From Thelocarpon superellum (Eukaryota), in NCBI GenBank assembly GCA_026025795.1, contig JAPEUG010000148.1, positions 1 to 36,585 on the forward strand: a stretch of 36,585 bases of DNA. The letters run 5' to 3'. Shown one piece after another: positions 1,892-22,115 of this stretch (position 1 is its first letter; each line of letters starts with the position of its first letter). The position numbers and the translations under genes were made by a program. Below the pieces are notes generated by a model, which made no database searches, had not been told where the DNA came from, and saw nothing but the letters and a program-made list of their open reading frames with translations.

Positions 1892-3801
1892 ATGTCAAAG
1901 ACCTTCTCCACTGCCGAAGTCGCCTCACATAACAAGGCAGACAGTCTTTGGGTCATCGTCGACGAAGACGTCTACGACCTGAGCAAATTCCAGGATGAGC
2001 ATCCAGGTCAGTATACCGTTGTGCACGCGTGCTGGTCTCCCAAGACTAACCCTACGCAGGCGGCAAGAAGAGTAAGTGACCCTGATGGCAGCGGTCTGGC
2101 CAACATCTAACGACCACGCCCGCAGTCTTGCAACGCGTCGCCGGCAAGGATGCTTCCAAACAATTCTGGAAGTACCACAATGAGGGGATCCTGAAAAAGT
2201 ACAAGGGGCAGCTCCAGCTGGGCTCATTGGATTCCAAGCCCAAGGCAGCCGCTCCGCCCACGCCACCCGCCACGCCTCCCGCGCCCGCCAAGAAAGCTGC
2301 CGCCAAGCCCGCGGCGACGCCCTCGGAGCCATCCGAGGCGATGGACGCCTTTGGTGATCTGGTGCCCTATGCCGATCCTTCGTGGTATCAGACGGTAGGT
2401 TCCTGGCATCTAGCATCGTCGCGCACGGACTAACGTCCTCAGTATCACTCACCCTACTTCAACGAGACCCACGTCGCCCTCCGCGCCGAGGTGCGCGAGT
2501 GGGTCGAGAAAGACATCGAGCCGTTCGTGGGTGAATGGGAGGAGGCGAAGAAGGTCCCAGACAGCATCTACAAGGCCATGGGCGAGCGAGGGTATCTGGC
2601 CGGCTTGATGGGGGTGCACTATCCCACACACCTGACGGCGAACACGGTCCAGAGCGTGGATCCGTCACGGTGGGATCTCTTCCACGAGATGCTGTTGACC
2701 GACGAGCTCTCCCGTAGCGGGAGTGGAGGCTTTGTGTGGAACGTCATCGGCGGCTTCGGCATTGGCTGCCCGCCGGTGATCAAGTTCGGGCAGAAGTCGC
2801 TGGTGGAGCGGATCCTGCCGGGCATCCTGAATGGCGACAAACGCATCTGCTTGGCCATCACCGAGCCTGATGCGGGCAGCGATGTGGCCAACTTGACGTG
2901 CGAGGCCAAGCTGAGCGAGGATGGCAAGCACTACATCGTCAATGGCGAGAAGAAGTGGATCACCAACGGCATCTGGTGCGACTACTTCACCACGGCTGTC
3001 CGCACGGGCGGCGAGGGCATGAACGGCGTCAGTATGCTGTTGATCGAGCGATCCGCGGGTGGGGTGAGCACGCGACGGATGGACTGCCAAGGCGTGTGGA
3101 GCAGCGGGACGACCTATATCACCTTTGAGGACGTCAAGGTGCCCGTGGAGAATCTGATCGGCAAGGCGAATCAAGGATTCAAGGGTACGTGACTCCCGAG
3201 ACGTCACTACGCCTGCCCTTGCCGGTGCTGACAGAGGCCTTAGTGATCATGACGAACTTCAACCACGAGCGCATTGGTATCATCATCCAATGTCTCCGCT
3301 TCTCGCGTGTCTGCTACGAGGAATCGGTCAAATACGCGCACAAGCGCCGCACCTTTGGGCAGAAGCTGATCGACCACCCGGTGATCCGACTCAAGCTGGC
3401 GCACATGGCGCGCCAGATCGAAGCCAGCTACAACTGGCTGGAGAACCTCATCTATCAATGCGAGAAGATGGGCGAGATGGAGGCCATGCTCAAGCTCGGT
3501 GGTGCCATTGCGAGCTTGAAAGCCCAAGCTACCGTCACCTTTGAATTCTGTGCGCGCGAGGCGTCGCAAATCTTTGGCGGCCTCAGCTACTCGCGTGGTG
3601 GACAAGGTGGGAAGGTCGAGCGGCTGTACCGTGACGTGCGGGCGTATGCCATTCCAGGTAGGTCGCTTCCATCTCCGACTCTCCCTTCTTCTCGACCTTG
3701 CTAAGCACCGTCGGTGATTAGGTGGATCAGAGGAGATTATGCTTGACCTGAGCATTCGACAGTCGCTCCGGGTGAACAAGGCCATCGGGATGCGGCTGTA
3801 G
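1892..3801 (+). CDS. Acyl-CoA dehydrogenase with N-terminal cytochrome b5 domain
   Basis: Spliced exons 1892-2006, 2060-2071, 2126-2394, 2443-3184, 3244-3657, 3722-3801, all GT-AG and in frame. b5 motifs VYDLSKF..EHPGG..GKDAS..H. ACAD motifs CLAITEPDAGSDVA, NGEKKWITNG, NFNHER, FGGLSY, IPGGSEEIM. Confidence 0.95.
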
Positions 3802-5689: not shown

Positions 5690-8470
5690 ATGTCGCGACC
5701 CACCACCAGCGCGAGCCACGCGAGCACGGTGGACTCGGCCACCTCGGCCTCACCCGCCCCACCTTACGGCAGCTTGAGCAGGGACGGCCTTGTCCCACAC
5801 CCCTCGGATCTGGATAGCCATGCCCCCGGGACCAACCGCGGCAACGTCCCGGACGCCGCGCGGGAGCATGACGGCGCTGGTCCGACGCGCGATGCTGCCA
5901 AAGGGCCTGGCCTTTCTTCGCAACCTGCCGCGCCATCGCCGGCGGTCTCGCAGCAGACCCCGTCCGCCGCGGCCACCTCGGCCGCGTCGAACTCCACCGC
6001 CCTTTCGGGCTTGGTGTGCAACGTCCATCGCACCACGGGCAGAGAGCCCCATCCGCTGGTCGGAGCAACGACGACCATTCTGGGGGACAAGCTGTATGTC
6101 TTTGGTGGCCGGGTGCTCTCACGGACGAGGCCTCAATTGACCAACGATCTATTCGAGCTCGATCTCGTGCGACGACACTGGACGCGAATTGACACCCGAG
6201 GCAACATCCCCGCCCCCCGCTACTTCCACAGCGTGTGCGCGCTGGGCGACACGAAGCTCGTGTGTTACGGGGGCATGTCCCCAGCCGCCTCGCTGCCATC
6301 GGGACCCTCCACTGGAGGGAGCACGACACAAGCCCCGGGCAGTGGCCAAGACCAGCCCGAGGTCGTGGTCATGTCGGACATTCACATCTACGACGTCGTC
6401 ACCCGCACGTGGACGTATATCTCGACACATGACACTCCCCAAGGACGATACGCCCACTGTGCCACCATCCTGCCCTCCTCGGCCGTCTTCACCTCGGCCA
6501 CGGCGCACTCGTCGGCCATCCATCACAATCCAGCCTCGAGCACCGGGAATCCCAACCAGGGCTCGATCGGGGTGGCGTTGGACGGCGCCGGCGGCGCGGA
6601 GATGGTCGTGGTCGGCGGCCAGGACAGCGCCAACCATTATATTGAACAGATCAGCGTCTTCAATCTGCGTAGCCTGCGCTGGATCGCGACCGACCCGCTG
6701 GGGAAGAGCTGTGGTGCCTACCGCAGCGTCGTCGCGCCCTTGACCGGCATGTCGGCGTCTCGCATCGGCCGAGGTCCCGGGTCGAAAGGAGGCCCGACGG
6801 ATGGCAAGCGACGCGATGGCGCCGAGGGGCGCGAGGCCGGCTCGTCTTTGCTCATCTATTCCAACTATAACTTCTTGGACGTCAAACTCGAGCTGCAGGT
6901 GCGCCTGCCGGATGGATCGTTATCGGAGAAGCCGATGCGGGGGGATTTCTCCCCGCCGGGCCTCCGATTCCCCAATGGCGGGGTGATCGATCGCCACCTC
7001 GTCATCAGCGGCACGTACCTCACGTCCTCCAAACAGGAGTACGCGTTGTGGGCGTTGGATTTGAATACGCTGACCTGGAGTCGGATCGACGCTGGCGGCA
7101 ATCACTTTAGCCAGGGCAGTTGGAATCGGGGCGTGCTGTGGACCCGACGCAACACCTTTGTCGTGCTCGGCAACCGGAAGCGGAGCTTGGTGGAGGATTA
7201 CAACCATCGGCGGATCAATTTCTCGAATGTGTGCATGGTGGAGCTGGAGGCGTTTGGCATGTACGACAACCCACGGAAGACGACGCCGACGTCTGCCTTC
7301 GTCTCGGCCAGCTCACCGGCTCCCGCGCCGTTGGCGGCGCTGCGCGAGAAGGCTACGTGGCTGAGCAACGGACGACCGCAGTCGGTCGCGGCCGAGGAGC
7401 TGGGCAAGATGATGATGGGGTACCGTGAGCTGGCGGATATGTCGCTCCTCGCCATGGGCGGCGAACGGATCCCGGTCAACTCTCATATCGTTGCGCAGCG
7501 ATGGGGGCCGTACTTTATTCAGATCCTCCGAGAAGGTGCGGCCGGTGGGGACAATGAGGAGGGGGGTGGGCACCGACGTGGCATGGAGAACGGGCCGAGC
7601 CGGAACTCCAGCGTCACCATCACCCCGAGCATTGGCGCCTCATCCACCTCGACTGCCACGGCGACGACGCTTCCCGTCTCTCAGACGAGCAACGGGCGAC
7701 GACCGTCGAACAACGACTTCTTCTCCTCGCCCACGGTGCAGAGTCTCGGGCCCGCGACGCGCCCGCGAACACTATATCTCCCTCATACGCATTCGACGCT
7801 GCAAACATTGGTGCATTATCTGTATACCTCGTCGCTCCCGCCACCTCATCACCCGTTGTGCACCCCTCAGATCTTGTGTTCCCTCCTCCAGATCGCGCGA
7901 CCCTACCAGATCGACGGCCTACTGGAAGCGGTCGTCGAGCGCCTGCACCAAGTCCTAGATGGACGCAACGCGGCGGCAGTCTTCAACGCGGCCGCCATGG
8001 CGGCCGGTGGGGGCCAAAGTACCACCACCGGGACGCGTGGTGCCGGGATCGGTCCGCGACCGCTGCTGCGAGGCGACACCATCAGCGACGACAGTACGGT
8101 GGCGGAAACGTCCCGCTCGTCGCTGACGGCATCGACTCGGCTGCCGGTGCCGAGCACGGCGACGGCATCGGCGCCCAGCGAGGATGAGTCGGACGTGTCC
8201 AGCGTCACGTCGGCGTCTGTCTCGACCAACACGACCGGGTCCGAGGTGGATCTCAGCGATGGCGGTGCCGGCCGAAACGTCGGCGCCGAGCGCGAGATCT
8301 GGGCAGGGGAGCTGAGCTCGGTCGTGGGATTGCAGAAGCGTGGTCTGCGCGGCTTGATGGAGGGTCGTCGCATCCGCGAGCGAGGGAAGAGCGTGGGAGC
8401 GAGCACGACCAGCATTCCCAGTGCGATTGAGAGGAGCCAGGATCGGGTGGGCTTGGGTATTGCTGGATGA
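5690..8470 (+). CDS. ral2: Ral2/Mds3/Pmd1-like Kelch-repeat + BTB-like regulatory protein (intronless)
   Basis: Kelch motifs (LVGATTTILGDKLYVFGG, PAPRYFHS, PQGRYAH, VVVGGQD, PPGLRFP). BTB-like region ADMSLLAMGGERIPVNSHIVAQRWGPYF ... LVHYLYTSSL. ATG 5690 (cccgccATG) chosen as start; the frame is open back to ATG 5300. Confidence 0.85.
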   Translation: MSRPTTSASHASTVDSATSASPAPPYGSLSRDGLVPHPSDLDSHAPGTNRGNVPDAAREHDGAGPTRDAAKGPGLSSQPAAPSPAVSQQTPSAAATSAASNSTALSGLVCNVHRTTGREPHPLVGATTTILGDKLYVFGGRVLSRTRPQLTNDLFELDLVRRHWTRIDTRGNIPAPRYFHSVCALGDTKLVCYGGMSPAASLPSGPSTGGSTTQAPGSGQDQPEVVVMSDIHIYDVVTRTWTYISTHDTPQGRYAHCATILPSSAVFTSATAHSSAIHHNPASSTGNPNQGSIGVALDGAGGAEMVVVGGQDSANHYIEQISVFNLRSLRWIATDPLGKSCGAYRSVVAPLTGMSASRIGRGPGSKGGPTDGKRRDGAEGREAGSSLLIYSNYNFLDVKLELQVRLPDGSLSEKPMRGDFSPPGLRFPNGGVIDRHLVISGTYLTSSKQEYALWALDLNTLTWSRIDAGGNHFSQGSWNRGVLWTRRNTFVVLGNRKRSLVEDYNHRRINFSNVCMVELEAFGMYDNPRKTTPTSAFVSASSPAPAPLAALREKATWLSNGRPQSVAAEELGKMMMGYRELADMSLLAMGGERIPVNSHIVAQRWGPYFIQILREGAAGGDNEEGGGHRRGMENGPSRNSSVTITPSIGASSTSTATATTLPVSQTSNGRRPSNNDFFSSPTVQSLGPATRPRTLYLPHTHSTLQTLVHYLYTSSLPPPHHPLCTPQILCSLLQIARPYQIDGLLEAVVERLHQVLDGRNAAAVFNAAAMAAGGGQSTTTGTRGAGIGPRPLLRGDTISDDSTVAETSRSSLTASTRLPVPSTATASAPSEDESDVSSVTSASVSTNTTGSEVDLSDGGAGRNVGAEREIWAGELSSVVGLQKRGLRGLMEGRRIRERGKSVGASTTSIPSAIERSQDRVGLGIAG

Positions 8471-10313: not shown

Positions 10314-11875
10314 ATGGACCCACATAACACGCCCGTGTTGCCGCCCCCAGCGGGCGTGACACCGAACTTCGTCGATCCGCCGTCAAAGGCGTACCTCGAA
10401 ACAGCATTCTCCATCTTCTGCCCCGTTCTTGCCGGTGTCTTCGTCATCGCTCGCGTCATCTCGCGGCTATGGATTTCCCGCGCGATCGGGCTGGACGATG
10501 GTCCGTACCACCGCGCGTCTGATGCGACGTCCGCCCACTAACCAATGTGACAGTGATGAGCGTCTTTGCAATGGTCAGTCGCCAGGGGACAGAGAATGGC
10601 CTCACGATTCTGATTCGAACGTCCGCAGGCGATTTCGATTGCCTTTTCCGTTAGCTTGATTGTGCGTACGTATAGCTCGCTGGGCCGTCGTGAAGCCGAG
10701 CCGCTGCTGAGGGTGCTGGACACAGGTGAGCCTACCGGCATCGGCAAACATCTGTGGGATGTCCGGCTCTCGGACTTTGCCCCTCGGTTCGGGCAGGTGA
10801 GTGCTGCCGCTGTCTTTCCCGGCCTGTGTCACGGCTGACGCATCTCCTTCCCGCCAGTGGTTCGTGGCGGCGGCAGTTCTCTACGACGTGTTTCTTTTTG
10901 CCTTCAAGATGGCCATCCTGCTCCTCTACCGGCGCTTGTTCTCCGTCAACAAGCGTTTTATGATCGTCGCCTACACGGTCATGTTCTTTATCTCGAGCTA
11001 CACCTTGGCTGGCCTGTTCGTCATCATCTTCGAATGCTCGCCCTATTGGGTAGGTGGTCGAGGTCACCCGCCGCAGCAAGCACGAGGCTCACCATCTGGC
11101 AGAAAGTGTGGGACCCACAGGTTCCAGGATCATGCCTCAATACCGAAGCCAGCGCCACCACCTTTGCCGTTTTCAACGTGTTGACCGATGTTGCCGTTCT
11201 ACTCATGCCCATGCCCGTGGTGATGAAACTCCAGCTTGAAAGGCGCATACGCTGGGGACTCTTCTTCGTGTTCCTCACCGGTGCTCTGTCAGTCACACTT
11301 CCGCTCTGCTTGTCATCGTCGCCGTCTGACTCTCGTCTAGCGTGGTGGTGGTCAGCATCTCCCGGCTCGTGGCTACCGTCGTCACCTACAGCAATCCTGA
11401 TCTGACCTGGGGGATCGTCACCTGGGATATCGCGTCGTACGCCCCCCCCACCCTTCTTTTCGCTGCCATTCCTGATCCGAGTTCTACCAGTCTCTTCGAG
11501 GGAAACGTCGGTATCATTGTGGGCTGCCTGCCTGTCGTCTTGCCGCTGGTCCAACGTCTCGTGCCATGTCTCATGACTCGTTCGCAGCGTTCGTCGATGA
11601 GGCGCACCACCGCCAAGACCGATCCGTCGAGCCAAGCGAGAAAGTACATTGACAGCGAGGAGCAGTCTGACGGAACATACGTTGAAATGGACAGCAAGCC
11701 GCGCACCACGGTTTCCTCGGGCAAGGAGTCTCGGGGCGCTGCCAAATCGGCCACTCGCACGGAAAATGAGAGCCAAGAGGCTATCATCGACTCCCATCAA
11801 GGAACCGGGATCATGAAGACCGTGGGCATTGACCTGCAACAGGAGAAAGTGGGCGATGACTATCGTCAGCGATGA
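10314..11875 (+). CDS. PTH11-like / fungal rhodopsin-domain integral membrane protein (no CFEM)
   Basis: Exons 10314-10500, 10554-10573, 10629-10665, 10726-10796, 10858-11049, 11103-11287, 11341-11436, 11491-11875. Motifs PPPAGVTPNFVDP, GLDD, GIGKHLWDV, KMAILLLYRRLF, NVLTDVAVLLMPMP, EGNVGIIVGCLP; about 7 hydrophobic segments. Confidence 0.9.
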
Positions 11876-13574: not shown

Positions 13575-14680
13575 CTAAATGACGCCGGACTTGTCGTAGC
13601 GCCAGCCCATGCTCTGGTGTCTTTCCTTGCGCTGAATCGTACGTCGAGCAAACCAAATGTCATGAGCAAACATCCAGACAACAAATATGGCAAGAAGGAC
13701 AAGCGCAAACATCACCAGAAGAAGAGTGACGACAGAGAACCAACGTGCAACGCTCAAGAAAGCCGACCAGCCATCGCTGCCACTCGACACTGCCGGGACG
13801 GCAAGCCCGACCTGCATGGCGTTGAGGACGACCGAGAAGATGGCAAAGAGGGAGAGCAGCGGCGTGATATAGCCACCGAGGAGCGCGCCCCATTGCGCCT
13901 CGAGGTGGTGGAAGGCAAGCTTCCTCAGGAACAGCCTGGTGTAGAAGTTGAGCCGCGTCAGCCGCAGCTCGCCGTAGCTATATCTGGGGCACACAAGCTC
14001 GTCGTTCATGTCTTCAAAGGAGGCAATGAAGGCCGCGAATCGTTCCCACGTGATGAGGTCCGTGCCGTCGTCCGCTGGGATAAGGCAGTACTCTTCGCGA
14101 CGCGCCAGCCGGAAATCCGACTCGTGCCGGATCAGGAACGAGTACGTTCGTATAAACCCCGCCGCTGCTTTCCAGATCTCTTCATTCTGCCTGCCGACTG
14201 TCGCTCCACGGCCCAGATACTCCCAGAAGGCGCGAGAGAGGAGATAGCGCGGAATAGGCTTGATGTAGATCTGGCTGTACGCCCACACAAGATGTAGTTG
14301 GGGATTCTCGGCGACCACAATCGACCGGCCTCGGACGGCCTGATGATGCAGGGGAGAGATGTGAGAGCTGACGGGGGTGGAAATCTAGCAGGCAAAACGG
14401 CGGCGCCCGACATTAGCTCCTGGTCTGACATGGAAGGGCAGAAGCTTGGATCACATACTAGCCAGAGCTTAGGAGCGAGCTTGTCCAGATCAGGGACCAT
14501 GATGTCGCTCTGGAGAAATCTTGTGAGTTCCTGATCTTCCAGCCTCACCCGGGGCTGGCCGGGCAATGTCGATGTGCCCGAAGCCGTCCGTGATCGTGAG
14601 ACTAGCAAGCGGTCGATGCCGCCGATACTCAACTGCGTATTGAGCTGCGTAGCCTCTGAGAACGGAGGGGCGCTCATCAT
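13575..14680 (-). CDS. DUF6601-like protein with two C-terminal transmembrane helices
   Basis: Exons 14680-14459 and 14384-13575 (GT-AG). Family-type motifs LDKLAPKLWL, ISPLHHQAVRGRSIVVAENPQLHLVW, IYIKPIPRYLLS, GFIRTYSFLIRHESDFRLA, RYSYGELRLTRLN, SVVLNAMQVGLA, then a second hydrophobic helix. No subtilisin catalytic motifs visible. Confidence 0.8.
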
Positions 14681-14942
14681 TGATGGATTGTGGGGAGTCG
14701 CTGCTGTCTTCAAAACGTATCAAGGCCCATACCCACAGCATATTGGGACAATGAGCTACCGAAGACTTGTATCAGTATGTGGTAAAGGTGAGGCTACGCG
14801 CGGCAAGGCTGACATGATGCCAAAAATAGGAAGCACTGCTCGCTGTCATGCTTCAGACATCGCCAGCCAGCCCATCAGCACCTTCAAGCAACGTCCATCG
14901 GACATAGGCTGTTGAGAGTCAAGCCCACTGGCGGTGAACATC

Positions 14943-17900
14943 ATGGTAAAGCCAGTGCCAATCCGTCAGACAGCGCTGCAACCCGCTGACACGATGAGCA
15001 GGCAGTCATCGGAGAAAAGAGGGGCTACGTCACCCAGTTCTATCCGCCGGTCGGTTCCGGCCGGGAGAGCGAGGTCGAGTAAGGTCGAGCCCTAGTACTC
15101 GGAATGTACTTCGTCGAGTAACACACCCAGCATCGTTGCCGTCCACGGGCTGGGCACAGAGTCTCCAACGACGTGGATTGCCTACGATGACTCTCAGAAG
15201 GATGGCATCGAAGGCAGCCCTTCAGCTCCGGACCCGGGCCGACGCTACGTCAACTGGCTCGGCGACGAGAACATGCTCCCAAATAAGGTCCCGACAGCGC
15301 GCATCTTGTCGTTCAACTATGACTCCAGCTGGTACTTCCATGCACCAGCTCAGAGGCTGCTTCCACTTGCGGAGACGCTGTTGACGACGTTGTCGGACTT
15401 CCGGAAGAAGGCAAGTGCTGCGTCTCGAGGTATGACTGGCACTCACCAGCACTTAGAATTGCACGCTTGAACGACCGGTGATCTTCGTTGCCTCGAGCTT
15501 TGGTGGACTTGTCGTCGCCCAGGTACGTCGACGAAGCAGCAAAGTTCCTTCCGTGGCAATTTAGCGAATGCCTGGAAAGGTCGACTGATGGGAGGCTGTT
15601 CAGGCTCTCGAGCGTGCCAGCCAGGTTGAAGAGTTTAGAAGCCTTTTACTTGCCACCGTTGGTGTGGTCTTCTTGGGATGCCCCTTACGGGGCACTCGTC
15701 ATGCCAAAGCTACATCATGGGTGACAATGGTGTCCGGGATTTTGGGCCGCAGGCCTTCAGACACTCTTACGAGAGATCTTGAGGGCAACAATGGGGTTTT
15801 GGAAGACCTGCACCATCGCTTCAGCACCTTGGCCCGAGAGCTGGGTCTGGAGCTTCGATTCTTCTACGAGATGCAGCCTACTGCGATCTTTCCCGCATGG
15901 GGAATCATTTCGAGATACACCGAAGTGCTCGTAAGTCCCCGCATGGAGCATGTTGGTTTGAGAACTCACTGAAGATCGTCAAGCTTGTGGATCAGATCTC
16001 GGCATGCATCGATACCTATCAAAGATGGGGTCTCAATGTCCGACATTGCATGATGAATAAGTTTGCCGATCCGCAAGACGGCAACTATGAGCTTGTCGCT
16101 GGCCGTGTTCTCGATCTCGCACAAAATTTGACCAAGATCATGGCCGCCAGGCGCAAAGGTACGTGTCCATATCCATTTACTTTCAGTTCTGCGCAAGTGC
16201 GCCTCGGACCCGACGCTTGCTCCAGCAACGCGTCGGACTCGCCGGTCCCATGTGCTGTCAGGCGCCGCATTATCGAGCTTATCTGATGTGGCAACATAGA
16301 GGTCGTGTACACCTATTTGCCGCTAGAGAGAAACGAAGACGTCGTCATTCGCGGCTCGCTTTTCAAGCAGCTGAATGTGCACCTTCCTCTGGGTAATCAG
16401 CGACAAGCGGCCGCCCTCTGGGGTTTAGGGGGCTCTGGGTATGTCATGCGTCCAAACCGGCTAAACCAGAGCTGATCAAAGTAAGAAAAACTCAGGTTGC
16501 TCTCGAATTCGCATTCCAGAGGCATGATCAAAGCTCTTGCTCGGTGTTCTGGGTCCACGCAGACAGTGTCGCAAGCTTCACCCGCGACTACGAAGGCATT
16601 GCCAAGAATGTCGGGCTCAGCCTGGAGATCAAGGGAGAAGAACTCTTGGACTCGGTACGACTATGGCTTGAGCAACAGAGCAGCTACCTGCTAGTCCTCG
16701 ACAATGCCGACGTCCTCAACATCTTTCGCGGACACAGTACAGCAGGAAACCCCAACCCAGGACCAATCGAGCTGTCTCGGTTTGTCCCTCAAGGATCTAC
16801 TGGGAGCATCTTATGGACATCTCGAGACTCTCAGATCGTCGGAAACTGGGTGAGCGCGCAGAAGGGGGTTGAAGTCGGGAAGATGGAGCCCGCCGAAGCC
16901 TTGGATCTACTTCGCTGCCTCAGCTGCAGTACCTTGACCGGCGAGGCTTCTTGCGCCGAAATGGACCTCATCGACGAGCTCCACAAGCTTCCGCTCGCCG
17001 TGGCGCAAGCAGCGGCTTCCATCAGAACCACTGGTATCTCCGTAGGGGCTTACGTCAAGAGACTGGGCTCGGAGGAGAAGTGGATCAAGTCCTTGGACAG
17101 AGATTTCGTCGACCGATATCGACGATCAGACGTCCCAAACAGCGTGCTCAGAACCTGGCTGATCTCCATGGACCAGATTGCCGCAGAAAACGCTCTCGCT
17201 AAGAAGATTTTTACTACCATCGTCTTCTTCGACCGACAAGGAATCCCCTTCGAGCTTTTGCGTGCAGCTGCTGGCCTCGAGCTGGACGACGACGACGACG
17301 ACAACGACGAGGACGAAGCTCTCCAGGCCGCTACGCGACTGAAGGAATTCTCATTCCTGAAGGTCATGGCTCAGGAGCTTGGAGACATGCCTCAGTATGA
17401 GCTTCACCCACTAGTCCAGAAAGCCACCCGACTCTCCTTGGACAAATCGACCCGCGCCGAGCATGTCAACGCTGCGGCTCAAATCATGGGGAAAGTCTTC
17501 CCTTCCGGCGAGTACGGTAGCTGGGAAAAATGTCGGCTCTTCGTACCGCACGCAACAACAGCCTTGGCGTGGCTTAAAGGCGTCAAGCAGAAAATACGTC
17601 ACCTTAATCTTACTGTCAACGTTGCTCGTTATTTTTACGAGCAAGGCCGGTCGACAGAGGCAGAGAAGCTCGGGTTCCAGGTGCTGGAGCTGCGCAAGGG
17701 CGTGCTGGGAGAGAGGCACCCTGACACCCTGGACAGTATGGACGACCTGGCTTCGACATACCATCAGCAAGGCCGGTCGAAGGAGGCAGAGGAGCTCCAC
17801 GCCCAGGCATTGGAGCTACGTAAGAGCGTGCTGGGAGAGAGGCACCCCAACACGCTGACCGGTATAGCCAATCTGGCAGCGACATACAGGCAGCAAGGCC

Positions 17901-18865
17901 GATTGAAGGAGGCAGAGGAGCTTGAAGTCCAGGTGCTGGAGCTGCGCAAGGACATACTGGAGGAGAGGCATCCCGACACGCTACGCAGCATGGCCAACCT
18001 GGCAGCGACCTACCATCAGCAAGGTCGGTCGACAGAGGCAGAAGAGCTCCATGTACAGGTGCTGGAGCTCCGCAAGGATATGCTGGAAGAAAAGCACCCA
18101 GAAATGCTGCGCAGCATGGCCAACCTGGCAGCGACCTACCATCAACAAGGTCGGTCGTCAGAGGCAGAGGAGCTCCACGTACAGGTGCTGGAGCTACGCA
18201 AGGACGTGCTGGGACAGGCGCATCCCGACACGCTGACCAGCATGGCTAATCTATCAGCAACATACAGGCAGCAAGGCCGGTCGACAGAGGCAGAGGAGCT
18301 TCTCGTCCAGGTGCTGGAGCTCCGCAAGAATGTGCTGGGAGAGAGGCACCCCGACACACTACGCAGCGTAGCCAACTTGGCAGCAGCATACAGGCAGCAA
18401 GGTCATTTAAAGGAGGCAGAAGAGCTCCACGCCCAGGCATTGGAGCTACGCAAGGACGTGCAGGGAAAGAGGCACCCCAATACGCTACGCAGCATGTCCA
18501 ACCTGGCAGTGACGTACTTGCAGCAAGGCCGGTCAAAGGAGGCAGAGGAGCTCCACGTTCAGGCATTGGAGCTACGCAAGGACGTGCTGGGAGAGAGGCA
18601 CTCCAGCACGCTGCGCAGCATGGCCAACCTGGCAATGACATACTGGCAGCAAGGCCGGTCAAAGGAGGCAGAGGAGCTCCACGTTCAGGCATTGGAGCTA
18701 CGCAAGGACGTGCTGGGAGAGAGGCACCCCAACACGCTAGCCAGCAGGGCCCACCTGGCAGCGACCTACCGGCAGCAAGGTCGGTTGAAGGAGGCGGAAC
18801 AGCTCGAGGCCCAGGAGCTGGAGCTGCGGAAGGAAAGCCGAACTCCTTCTCTGCCCAGACCTTGA
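14943..18865 (+). CDS. Fungal NLR: SesB/DUF676-like alpha/beta-hydrolase + NB-ARC + TPR (kinesin-light-chain-like) repeats
   Basis: Exons 14943-14945 (ATG only), 15002-15078, 15131-15410, 15457-15522, 15604-15930, 15984 (or 15975)-16158, 16300-16438, 16486-18865. Hydrolase motifs DIVAVHGLG, VNWL..ARILSFNYDS, RPVIFVASSFGGLVV, VVFLGCPLRGT, HCMMNKF. NB-ARC motifs GLGGSGKTQVA, LLVLDNAD, ILWTSRD, LPLAVAQ, LHPLVQ. 42-aa TPR units at the C-terminus. Confidence 0.9.
17648..18830 (+). repeat. Tandem 126-bp (42-aa) TPR repeats, 9 full + 1 partial
   Basis: Consensus RSxEAEELHVQVLELRKDVLGERHPDTLRSMANLAATYxQQG. Units start at 17648 + 126n; the partial 10th starts at 18782. Confidence 0.97.
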
Positions 18866-21152: not shown

Positions 21153-21356
21153 CTTACTCATCATCGGCTTTCAAGAATCGCGCCCGAGTCGTGTCGGAGC
21201 TCCGGTCATGGGTGCGGTCACGAACTACAACTTTTATCACCATGCCTGCCCAATTCCCTAGTCCGTGGTAGTCTCCAGGGCGCCATGACTCCATATCTCG
21301 ACGGATTCTCCTAGATCAATCTGCACCGTCATCCTTGTGTTCATCCTCGTCTCAGC

Positions 21357-22115
21357 ATGAGTGAAGACGCCACGCCCGGGGGAGCCACGGCGGCGGCGAG
21401 CGCCCCCGACGAGACCATGGGCGACGACGCTTCCTTGTCGCCCACTCCACCGCCCGCCGGAGCTCACGTACCCTCTGACGACGCAGCCGCAACGACACCC
21501 ACGACCCCCCGCCGCCGGACCCAATTGACACGAGACCAACGAATCCAAGTGCAGACGCTGCGGCGGGTGGGATGGAAATACAGCGACATCGCCGCGCACC
21601 TGCACATCACTCCACGCCAGGTGCAGATCGCGTCCACGGCCAGCACGCCGACGCCGAAGAAGCGACCAGGGCGGCCGCCGAAGCTCGACGAGGTCCATCG
21701 GCGCCAGTTGATGGACTTTGTGGCCGCGTCACCGGATCATCGCCGCCTTACCTATGCCCAGATGCGGGAGGGGCTGGGCTGGCTGGATCGTGTCTCGGAT
21801 CATGCGATCCGTCGGGCCTTGAAGACGGAAGGGTTCGTCAGGGACGATGTCCCTGTTGGTGGAGGACAGGGCAGACGTCATGGAGCGCTGACGGAGCTGG
21901 AGACGGTGCCGGTCTCGGCCACGCCTACGTCTGCCTCGTCGAATCGCCAGGTGACGCCCGATTCTGCGTTGGAACTGACGGCACCTGCTCTAGCTCCAGC
22001 TCCTGCTCCAGCTCCAGCTCCAGCACAGCCAGCGTCGTCGCCATCATATCTGCCGAAACCGATACCAACCATGACAAAGAGAGACGGCGGACCGACCGAA
22101 GGAGAGCGTGCTTGA
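21357..22115 (+). CDS. Tc1/mariner transposase-like bipartite HTH DNA-binding protein lacking the DDE domain
   Basis: Core about 21510-21845: QLTRDQRIQVQTLRRVGWKYSDIAAHLHITPRQVQ..TPKKRPGRPPKL..RRLTY..VSDHAIRRALKTEGF, i.e. HTH1, GRP linker, HTH2. Flanks are low-complexity (AP repeat about 21993-22024). Uninterrupted 252-aa ORF. Confidence 0.75.
   Translation: MSEDATPGGATAAASAPDETMGDDASLSPTPPPAGAHVPSDDAAATTPTTPRRRTQLTRDQRIQVQTLRRVGWKYSDIAAHLHITPRQVQIASTASTPTPKKRPGRPPKLDEVHRRQLMDFVAASPDHRRLTYAQMREGLGWLDRVSDHAIRRALKTEGFVRDDVPVGGGQGRRHGALTELETVPVSATPTSASSNRQVTPDSALELTAPALAPAPAPAPAPAQPASSPSYLPKPIPTMTKRDGGPTEGERA

Follow-up and report, generated by a model that had tools for sequence, protein, structure and literature searches.

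In the fungal modules built around NOD-like receptors (NLRs; NOD, nucleotide-binding oligomerization domain), the gene for the executioner adjoins the gene for the receptor, as described for nwd2/het-S and for gasdermin/protease (PMC12881547). Clusters of the nwd2/het-S type are widespread in Pezizomycotina (PMC9815663, PMC12881547), and in the gasdermin clusters the membrane protein of the neighboring gene is switched on by a hydrolytic domain that is fused to NOD or repeat modules (PMC12881547). Among the output domains found in fungal NLRs, the sesB-like hydrolases rank with the most frequent (PMC4986451, PMC12258605); the available text of the NLR literature surveyed says neither what they act on nor how. 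We have analyzed a stretch of 36,585 nucleotides from Thelocarpon superellum (contig JAPEUG010000148.1; hereafter the window), in which a gene for a DUF6601 protein (gene A) stands head to head with a gene for an NLR whose N-terminal domain appears to be a hydrolase of the sesB-like class (gene B). A fungal NLR with an adjacent partner gene is a known arrangement; in this case, DUF6601 and the hydrolase domain stay together across related loci, and the NOD and repeat modules are swapped around them.

The preliminary description of this locus had proposed a head-to-head pair with ATG codons at 14680 (minus strand) and 14943 (plus strand), 262 bp apart, one gene encoding a DUF6601-like protein that ends in a two-helix hydrophobic hairpin, the other a hydrolase-NB-ARC-TPR NLR. 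The gene models confirm this layout. Exon 2 of gene A matches the Pfam family DUF6601 (PF20246) with 231.2 bits (cut-off 27, E 1.9e-68, profile positions 28-239 of 240), and the hairpin is recovered both in the Kyte-Doolittle profile and in the AlphaFold model of a homologue. Gene B yields a model of 1168 aa with the motifs of such a receptor and a TPR array, although the Pfam NB-ARC match, obtained with an intron-truncated open reading frame (ORF), stays below the cut-off (12.3 bits against 23.5). The features of the pair are as follows.

13575..14384, minus strand: gene A exon 2 including the stop codon, carrying the larger part of the DUF6601 domain along with the hydrophobic hairpin and a basic C-terminal tail that ends in KSGVI (ORF, Pfam and gene model)
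13644..13892, minus strand: two hydrophobic helices of gene A, a predicted membrane hairpin, with a conserved AMQV motif in helix 1 (Kyte-Doolittle; AlphaFold model of homologue P0006)
14385..14458, minus strand: gene A intron, 74 nt, GTATGT...TGCTAG (sequence and script check)
14459..14680, minus strand: gene A exon 1, of 74 codons, in which the N-terminal motifs PF...LN...LPGQPRV are conserved; ATG at 14680
14681..14942, no strand: divergent intergenic region and presumed shared promoter, 262 bp from ATG 14680 to ATG 14943
14943..15073, plus strand: gene B exon 1, leader before the hydrolase; start codon and first intron are the least certain part
15131..16158, plus strand: gene B exons 2-5, predicted alpha/beta-hydrolase of the sesB-like class (motifs; homologous domain in 52 of 80 loci)
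16300..17639, plus strand: gene B NTPase region, predicted NB-ARC-type STAND (signal transduction ATPase with numerous domains; motifs, alignment to locus L066, A3 profile)
17640..18865, plus strand: gene B TPR_10/TPR_12 array, with the stop codon at 18863-18865 (Pfam and tandem-repeat analysis)

The conservation of the pair was studied in public metagenome contigs. A scan with the DUF6601 alignment matched 511 stretches, 339 of which encode a relative of gene A; the best 80 of these 339 were each fetched with up to 10 kb per side and served as comparison loci (52 clusters at 80% identity, 28 at 60%). With pieces of gene B as tblastn queries, most loci proved to have the first hydrolase exon on the strand opposite DUF6601, a short distance upstream of it, and a hydrolase profile built from these first-exon matches beside DUF6601 recognized the domain in 52 of the 80 loci, as a single copy per locus except in L031. 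Among the 53 informative loci, which have at least 1500 bp upstream of DUF6601, the hydrolase is head to head with it in 43, in tandem downstream in 2 and missing in 8; counted per cluster, an adjacent hydrolase is present in 32 of 37 at 80% identity and in 18 of 22 at 60%. Fifty-six pieces of hydrolase match lie within 4 kb of DUF6601 (413 kb of sequence) versus a single one beyond 4 kb (358 kb), a density approximately 49-fold higher. The pairing of DUF6601 with the hydrolase exceeds chance, and the enrichment of divergent NLRs beside DUF6601 that the preliminary description had proposed as a check is present in this sample. In the 10 related loci with both starts readable the start-to-start spacing is 320-551 bp. 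A scan of 14681-14942 with bacterial promoter and terminator models found nothing, a result that carries no meaning for a fungus. A case independent of the metagenomes, and in a named genome, comes from a table for Curvularia clavata, where orf(-4), a DUF6601 protein, stands beside orf(-3), a protein of 1014 aa with NB-ARC and TPR_12 (PMC10512319).

Since bidirectional promoters can keep unrelated genes together, the two genes could be neighbors and nothing else, sharing a promoter region and inherited jointly, with no action on each other. This is very improbable, because the pairing persists down to approximately 39% DUF6601 identity while all the other flanks differ from locus to locus (M16 peptidase, Rad4, M3 peptidase, GDE1, ALG10, HET and peroxiredoxin genes are found there), and the domain that is linked is so much denser within 4 kb than beyond. 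The pairing also outlasts changes of orientation, the two genes being in tandem in L029, L045 and L066, and the insertion of a gene: in L020 (7937-9121) and L024 (173-1357) a DAO (FAD oxidoreductase) gene lies between DUF6601 and the NLR, L024 being hydrolase-negative as a short contig of the L020 type. We are confident that the two genes make up a functional unit that has been conserved, and the recurrence of the pair points to an immune or cell-death module. In the database protein P0122, DAO and DUF6601 are merged into one model of 746 aa. At L031, DUF6601 is flanked on both sides by Cys-type hydrolases, at 2510-2890 (minus) and 5914-6336 (plus), and the upstream one runs on into NB-ARC and TPR.

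The two genes can also be separated. Loci L003 and L006 are 95-97% identical from position ~9058 onward, up to ~0.9 kb upstream of DUF6601; beyond that point L003 carries a hydrolase-NACHT-ankyrin gene, and the DNA of L006 is AT-rich (18-28% GC), with no trace of an NLR that could be detected. This is a presence/absence difference of the NLR in which DUF6601 is kept. AT-rich DNA is also found upstream of DUF6601 in the hydrolase-negative locus L036, which is solo, as is L040; apparently true solo copies of DUF6601 are those of L014, L071 and L075, which, like L006, belong to the eight loci without hydrolase. Conversely, the only hydrolase gene away from DUF6601, in L060, has no second DUF6601 within 1.6 kb beside it. 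Such loci are relevant to the idea that DUF6601 is an antidote, binding and silencing the hydrolase domain or repairing the damage it does, so that a leaky receptor would not harm the cell, as in toxin-antidote systems. Divergent co-expression from the short shared region (presumed) would suit this role, as would the persistence of DUF6601 over the AT-rich DNA of L006, solo copies such as that of L014, and the fact that no clear lone hydrolase-NLR was seen, a point on which one locus (L060) bears. A simple inhibitor, however, would need neither a membrane hairpin nor a large conserved soluble domain, and an unused executioner would outlast its NLR equally well; we regard the antidote as distinctly unlikely.

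What stays constant in the partner was examined by running Pfam on the partner-side ORFs in 29 loci, with the following architectures.

Hydrolase and NACHT (NPHP3_N): 13 of 29 loci, 11 of them also with ankyrin repeats
Hydrolase, NB-ARC and TPR: 6 of 29 loci
TPR and a NOD without Pfam call: 5 of 29 loci
Architecture left unassigned (contig ends; in one locus the hydrolase is followed by a Peptidase_S8 ORF): 5 of 29 loci

In a tree of 59 DUF6601 sequences, built with a quick method, the NACHT and NB-ARC partners are intermixed, even in well-supported shallow clades. The swapping of NOD and repeat modules around the hydrolase fits the report that the sesB-like domain combines with all types of nucleotide-binding domain (PMC12258605). 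Since ankyrin and TPR sensors are unrelated folds, DUF6601 is more likely tied to the output domain that the partners share. The preliminary description had taken DUF6601 as a possible partner of the NLR, and had suggested that the phylogenies of the two be compared: partnership stands as far as linkage goes, the conserved partner being the N-terminal hydrolase domain and not the NB-ARC-TPR part, and the distances of DUF6601 and hydrolase do co-vary (Mantel r 0.72 for 33 pairs, a value inflated by shared species history, with 0 of 2000 permutations as high).

The same observations bear on a guard or allorecognition pair, in which DUF6601 would be a guardee or decoy and the NLR would sense its state or allelic form. 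A precedent is the patatin-NB-ARC-TPR receptor PLP-1, which reportedly senses the linked SNARE SEC-9; like SNAREs, DUF6601 is predicted to be anchored in the membrane by its C-terminus. Tight linkage and co-divergence are what one would expect of such a pair, as is the NLR presence/absence difference between the nearly identical loci L003 and L006. The TPR array of gene B (17640-18834) is a 126-bp tandem repeat, with units of 42 residues, 9.5 copies and 80% matches at the DNA level, comparable to that of a polymorphic Podospora sesB-like/NB-ARC/TPR gene, and internally similar repeats of this kind are hypervariable in Podospora NLRs (PMC4986451). Still, DUF6601 is retained while the sensor switches between ankyrin and TPR and the NOD between NACHT and NB-ARC; recognition of one protein by two unrelated repeat folds is a less economical explanation than a tie to the shared hydrolase, and we consider a guard pair unlikely.

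In L062 (7227-9563, minus strand) the hydrolase ORFs are followed by Peptidase_S8 ORFs on the same strand (E 7.3e-12), a layout that may explain the database name 'subtilisin-like serine protease' of some DUF6601 proteins. In L061 (6820-7527, minus strand) the ORF of the first hydrolase exon extends ~140 residues upstream of the HG motif and has several hydrophobic stretches, unlike the other partners.

The hydrolase domain is probably catalytic, judging by its conserved residues. In most partner genes, introns flank a small exon with the nucleophile elbow on both sides; the elbow could be read at 52 of 55 hydrolase matches, with Cys in 34 of them ([AG][HS]C[FY]GG) and Ser in 18 (HS[FM]GG; ASSFGG in the window). 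That many partners use a Cys nucleophile was not visible to the preliminary description. We also collected relatives of the hydrolase ORF of L049 (1153 cluster representatives at E ≤0.001), and aligned 76 of the 150 listed relatives (250-1550 aa) with the L052 ORF, for a total of 77 rows. The nucleophile column of this alignment contains C in 43 rows, S in 21, other residues in 2 and a gap in 11; the His column has H in 71 of 73 filled rows, and the Glu column of the CF.E motif has E in 75 of 76. That Ser and Cys alternate while His and Glu stay fixed is an argument for a functional acyl-enzyme catalyst, and the frequent Cys nucleophile suggests a chemistry other than that of a plain lipase. 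With the intron-free domain of L052, Pfam gives weak matches, to Abhydrolase_6 at 24.3 bits (cut-off 26.3), DUF676 at 22.2 (cut-off 20.3) and PGAP1 at 11.9, and the only solved relative found by sequence is MpaH', an acyl-CoA hydrolase, at E 1.2e-3 around the elbow.

Gene B itself (14943-18865, plus strand) is, on the evidence of its motifs and predicted splicing, a fungal NLR composed of an alpha/beta-hydrolase, a probable NB-ARC-type NTPase and ~10 TPR units. The 1168-aa model has 7 exons (14943-15073, 15131-15410, 15457-15522, 15604-15930, 15975-16158, 16300-16438, 16486-18865) and no internal stops; its six predicted introns (15074-15130, 15411-15456, 15523-15603, 15931-15974, 16159-16299, 16439-16485) are of 44-141 nt with GT/GC-AG ends, and remove two in-frame stops, TAG 15093 and TGA 16284. 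The least certain of them are the first (57 nt, GTCGAG donor) and the GC-AG intron 15411-15456 (46 nt, GCAAGT...TTAG). The latter is the sole link that keeps the frame from the first hydrolase exon to the nucleophile exon, as the alternatives with a GT donor either break the frame or make the intron too short. The hydrolase shows the motifs IVAVHGLG (HG at residues 49-50), ASSFGG, FFYE and RHCMMNKF, with Ser151 of ASSFGG (15496-15498), Glu248 of FFYE and His292 of RHCMMNKF as putative catalytic residues. In the NTPase region the Walker A motif GLGGSG|KT is interrupted by intron 16439-16485; the region also contains LLVLDN, TSRD, LPLAVA and a DUF7779-like winged-helix part.

This NTPase region aligns with that of the L066 partner at 5e-24, and the same stretch matches L029, L030, L031, L032, L037, L061, L066, L068 and L077 (1.5e-7 to 1.8e-21); in L030, L031, L032, L037 and L061 the ORFs at these matches pass Pfam NB-ARC. 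We provisionally assign gene B to the NB-ARC type because of its motifs and of this similarity to partners in related loci, some of which pass the Pfam threshold. The A3 profile, which mixes relatives of the NACHT and the NB-ARC type, hits chains of APAF-1 and of plant NLRs. The repeats are recognized by Pfam as TPR_12 (E 5.8e-130, 9 stretches) and TPR_10 (E 7.6e-108, 10 stretches). The in-frame stops of a naive reading, the subthreshold NB-ARC match and the weak donor of the first intron could be taken to mean that gene B is a decaying pseudogene in the window, and the pair no longer functional. We find this extremely improbable: introns with GT/GC-AG ends bridge every break, the model keeps all the catalytic and NTPase motifs, and related loci have introns at the same places around the exon of the nucleophile.

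Gene A (13575-14680, minus strand; stop codon 13575-13577) encodes 343 aa with no internal stops. Its homologues align unbroken across the exon junction KLWL|ISTP, and an alignment of 43 of them extends through exon 1, LPGQPR motif included, which places the true start at 14680. P0001, the database entry for this protein, has 283 aa; it begins with an internal Met, and is missing ~60 conserved N-terminal residues. By the source names of its database relatives, the DUF6601 family occurs across Pezizomycotina. Pfam finds no domain besides DUF6601 in gene A. No fusion of DUF6601 to a NOD was found among 10 longer proteins from 3946 candidates, which is weak evidence, as these 10 resemble merged gene models with DAO, Mak16/eL28/TPR_12 or ankyrin. 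An ORF with a Fung_rhodopsin domain lies downstream of DUF6601 both in the window (10839-11402, plus strand) and in L020 (12155-12688, minus strand), which may be a coincidence.

Fold prediction and fold search, also suggested beforehand, gave a confident model of DUF6601 and an empty search. The AlphaFold model of homologue P0006 (58-60% identical to gene A) has a predicted local distance difference test score (pLDDT) of 91.2 and a predicted template modeling score (pTM) of 0.85. Residues 1 to ~230 are modeled as a mixed alpha/beta domain and the remainder as a long helical hairpin, whose helices 237-267 and 276-327 coincide with the hydrophobic segments of gene A (residues ~239-274 and ~280-321 in the Kyte-Doolittle profile), which are followed by the basic tail. 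By the positive-inside rule, the soluble domain (~230 aa) and the C-terminal tail would both lie in the cytosol, where NLRs reside. The soluble domain modeled alone, from 25 sequences, has pLDDT 87 and pTM 0.84; strictly conserved polar residues (Q, E, H, K, R, Y, D, R, R, R, N) are scattered over it, and the M, Q and V columns of the MQV motif are conserved in the first hydrophobic helix of the relatives. Foldseek returned 0 matches at E ≤0.001 with the whole model, and likewise 0 at E ≤0.001 with the soluble domain. VIA-align matched the whole model on the helical hairpin only (Z up to 8.2, generic), and among 48,161 solved representative chains it found 3 with Z ≥2 for the soluble domain, the best at 2.8, where models without a true match usually score Z 7-8. 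The search is thus unusually empty, and the predicted fold is apparently new, though not proven to be so. Sequence searches of the PDB with DUF6601 gave no relative (best E 0.83), and the ESM Atlas no usable match.

The remaining contig consists of ordinary housekeeping genes. An ORF at 21315-22112 (plus strand) weakly resembles HTH_32 (homeodomain-like), with E 3.2e-7 and a score under the curated cut-off, and may be a transposase remnant.

Whether effector, anchor, guardee or inhibitor, the role of DUF6601 is one that we infer from these comparisons. We lean towards the view that it acts with the hydrolase output domain as a membrane partner, either target or anchor; a downstream role is favored because it is the output domain, rather than the sensor, that DUF6601 goes with. 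Genes A and B would form a divergently transcribed two-gene module, in which the TPR repeats of gene B presumably act as sensor, the NB-ARC-type NTPase serves as switch and the N-terminal alpha/beta-hydrolase is the output domain, and gene A would provide a hairpin-anchored membrane protein that works with the output domain, not with the sensor. The NLR would oligomerize, and its clustered Cys/Ser hydrolase domains would dock on DUF6601 at the membrane; the hydrolase would then either modify DUF6601, by cleavage or deacylation, or gain access to membrane lipids with DUF6601 as its anchor, and membrane damage and regulated cell death would follow. The evidence does not separate target from anchor. 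The sesB-like domains have been likened to human SERAC1, a phospholipid-remodeling esterase (PMC4986451). It is this likeness that suggests the role of anchor for DUF6601. SERAC1 carries a membrane anchor of its own. DUF6601 might be a new class of membrane executioner, with a fold not seen before, activated through covalent processing by the Cys/Ser hydrolase of a sesB-like NLR; this stronger version is tentative, and we hold it to be rather doubtful.

Several points weigh against a partnership of DUF6601 and the hydrolase. The 80 loci are nearest relatives, many of them drawn from a small number of related data sets, and the remaining 259 matching stretches lie outside the sample; the hydrolase profile, being built beside DUF6601, may be restricted to that subfamily; and shared species history contributes to the co-variation of the distances. 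There are the solo copies of DUF6601 and the hydrolase gene of L060 that lies apart from it. The splicing of gene B depends on introns that are predicted, including one whose donor is weak and one of the GC-AG type. Finally, contact, chemistry, topology and cell death are proposed from comparison.

In the literature searched, DUF6601 (PF20246) appears only in the table entry already cited (PMC10512319), and the DUF6601-hydrolase-NLR pair is not described in the available text of the NLR surveys or of a 2025 review; subscription journals and supplements may hold more on either. With the nwd2/het-S clusters the pair shares the joining of an NLR gene and the gene of a membrane-targeting protein in one unit. 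It differs from them in that Pfam finds no HeLo or HeLo-like domain, and in that gene B appears to carry a complete enzyme domain at its N-terminus, where those NLRs have a short amyloid motif. The preliminary description had seen no HeLo domain, gasdermin or amyloid motif, and no amyloid-type motif seems to be shared: BLASTP gave no alignment at E ≤100 between the 43-aa leader of gene B and exon 2 of the DUF6601 gene (exon 1 left out). By what is reported of it, plp-1/sec-9 likewise combines a lipase-class N-terminus, NB-ARC and TPR with the tightly linked gene of a C-terminally anchored membrane protein; there, however, the enzyme is a patatin, which the hydrolase of gene B is not, the partner is a SNARE, which DUF6601 is not, and the pairing with DUF6601 also covers NACHT-ankyrin receptors. 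The sesB-like NLRs (sesA/sesB/het-eN cluster) have a predicted lipase/esterase alpha/beta-hydrolase N-terminal to NACHT or NB-ARC, with ankyrin or TPR repeats, and gene B fits this class by its architecture and motifs; the available portions of the published descriptions name neither a DUF6601 partner nor a form with a Cys nucleophile.

The gasdermin/protease clusters (het-Q1/het-Q2, with S8 or CHAT receptors) offer the nearest parallel to the way in which the pair might operate, having a membrane-acting protein beside a nucleophile-triad enzyme fused to NOD or repeat modules. The enzyme of gene B is predicted to be an alpha/beta-hydrolase and not an S8 or CHAT protease, Peptidase_S8 being present only in the related locus L062, directly after the hydrolase; no gasdermin was found in DUF6601 by Pfam or among the Foldseek and VIA-align rows, the missing fold match leaving a relation possible. 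What is new, compared with these systems, is a partner family without an assigned function or fold match, a coupling without shared amyloid motif, HeLo domain or gasdermin, and the attachment of the partner to the large sesB-like class, spanning NACHT and NB-ARC receptors. The pair gives a first functional context for DUF6601, a Pfam family spread across Pezizomycotina, and a co-diverging membrane partner is a genetically testable handle on the sesB-like hydrolases. If DUF6601 were indeed an executioner processed by the hydrolase, this would account for the target of one of the largest classes of output domain in fungal NLRs, and would represent a third route to regulated cell death in fungi, beside HeLo/amyloid and gasdermin/protease.

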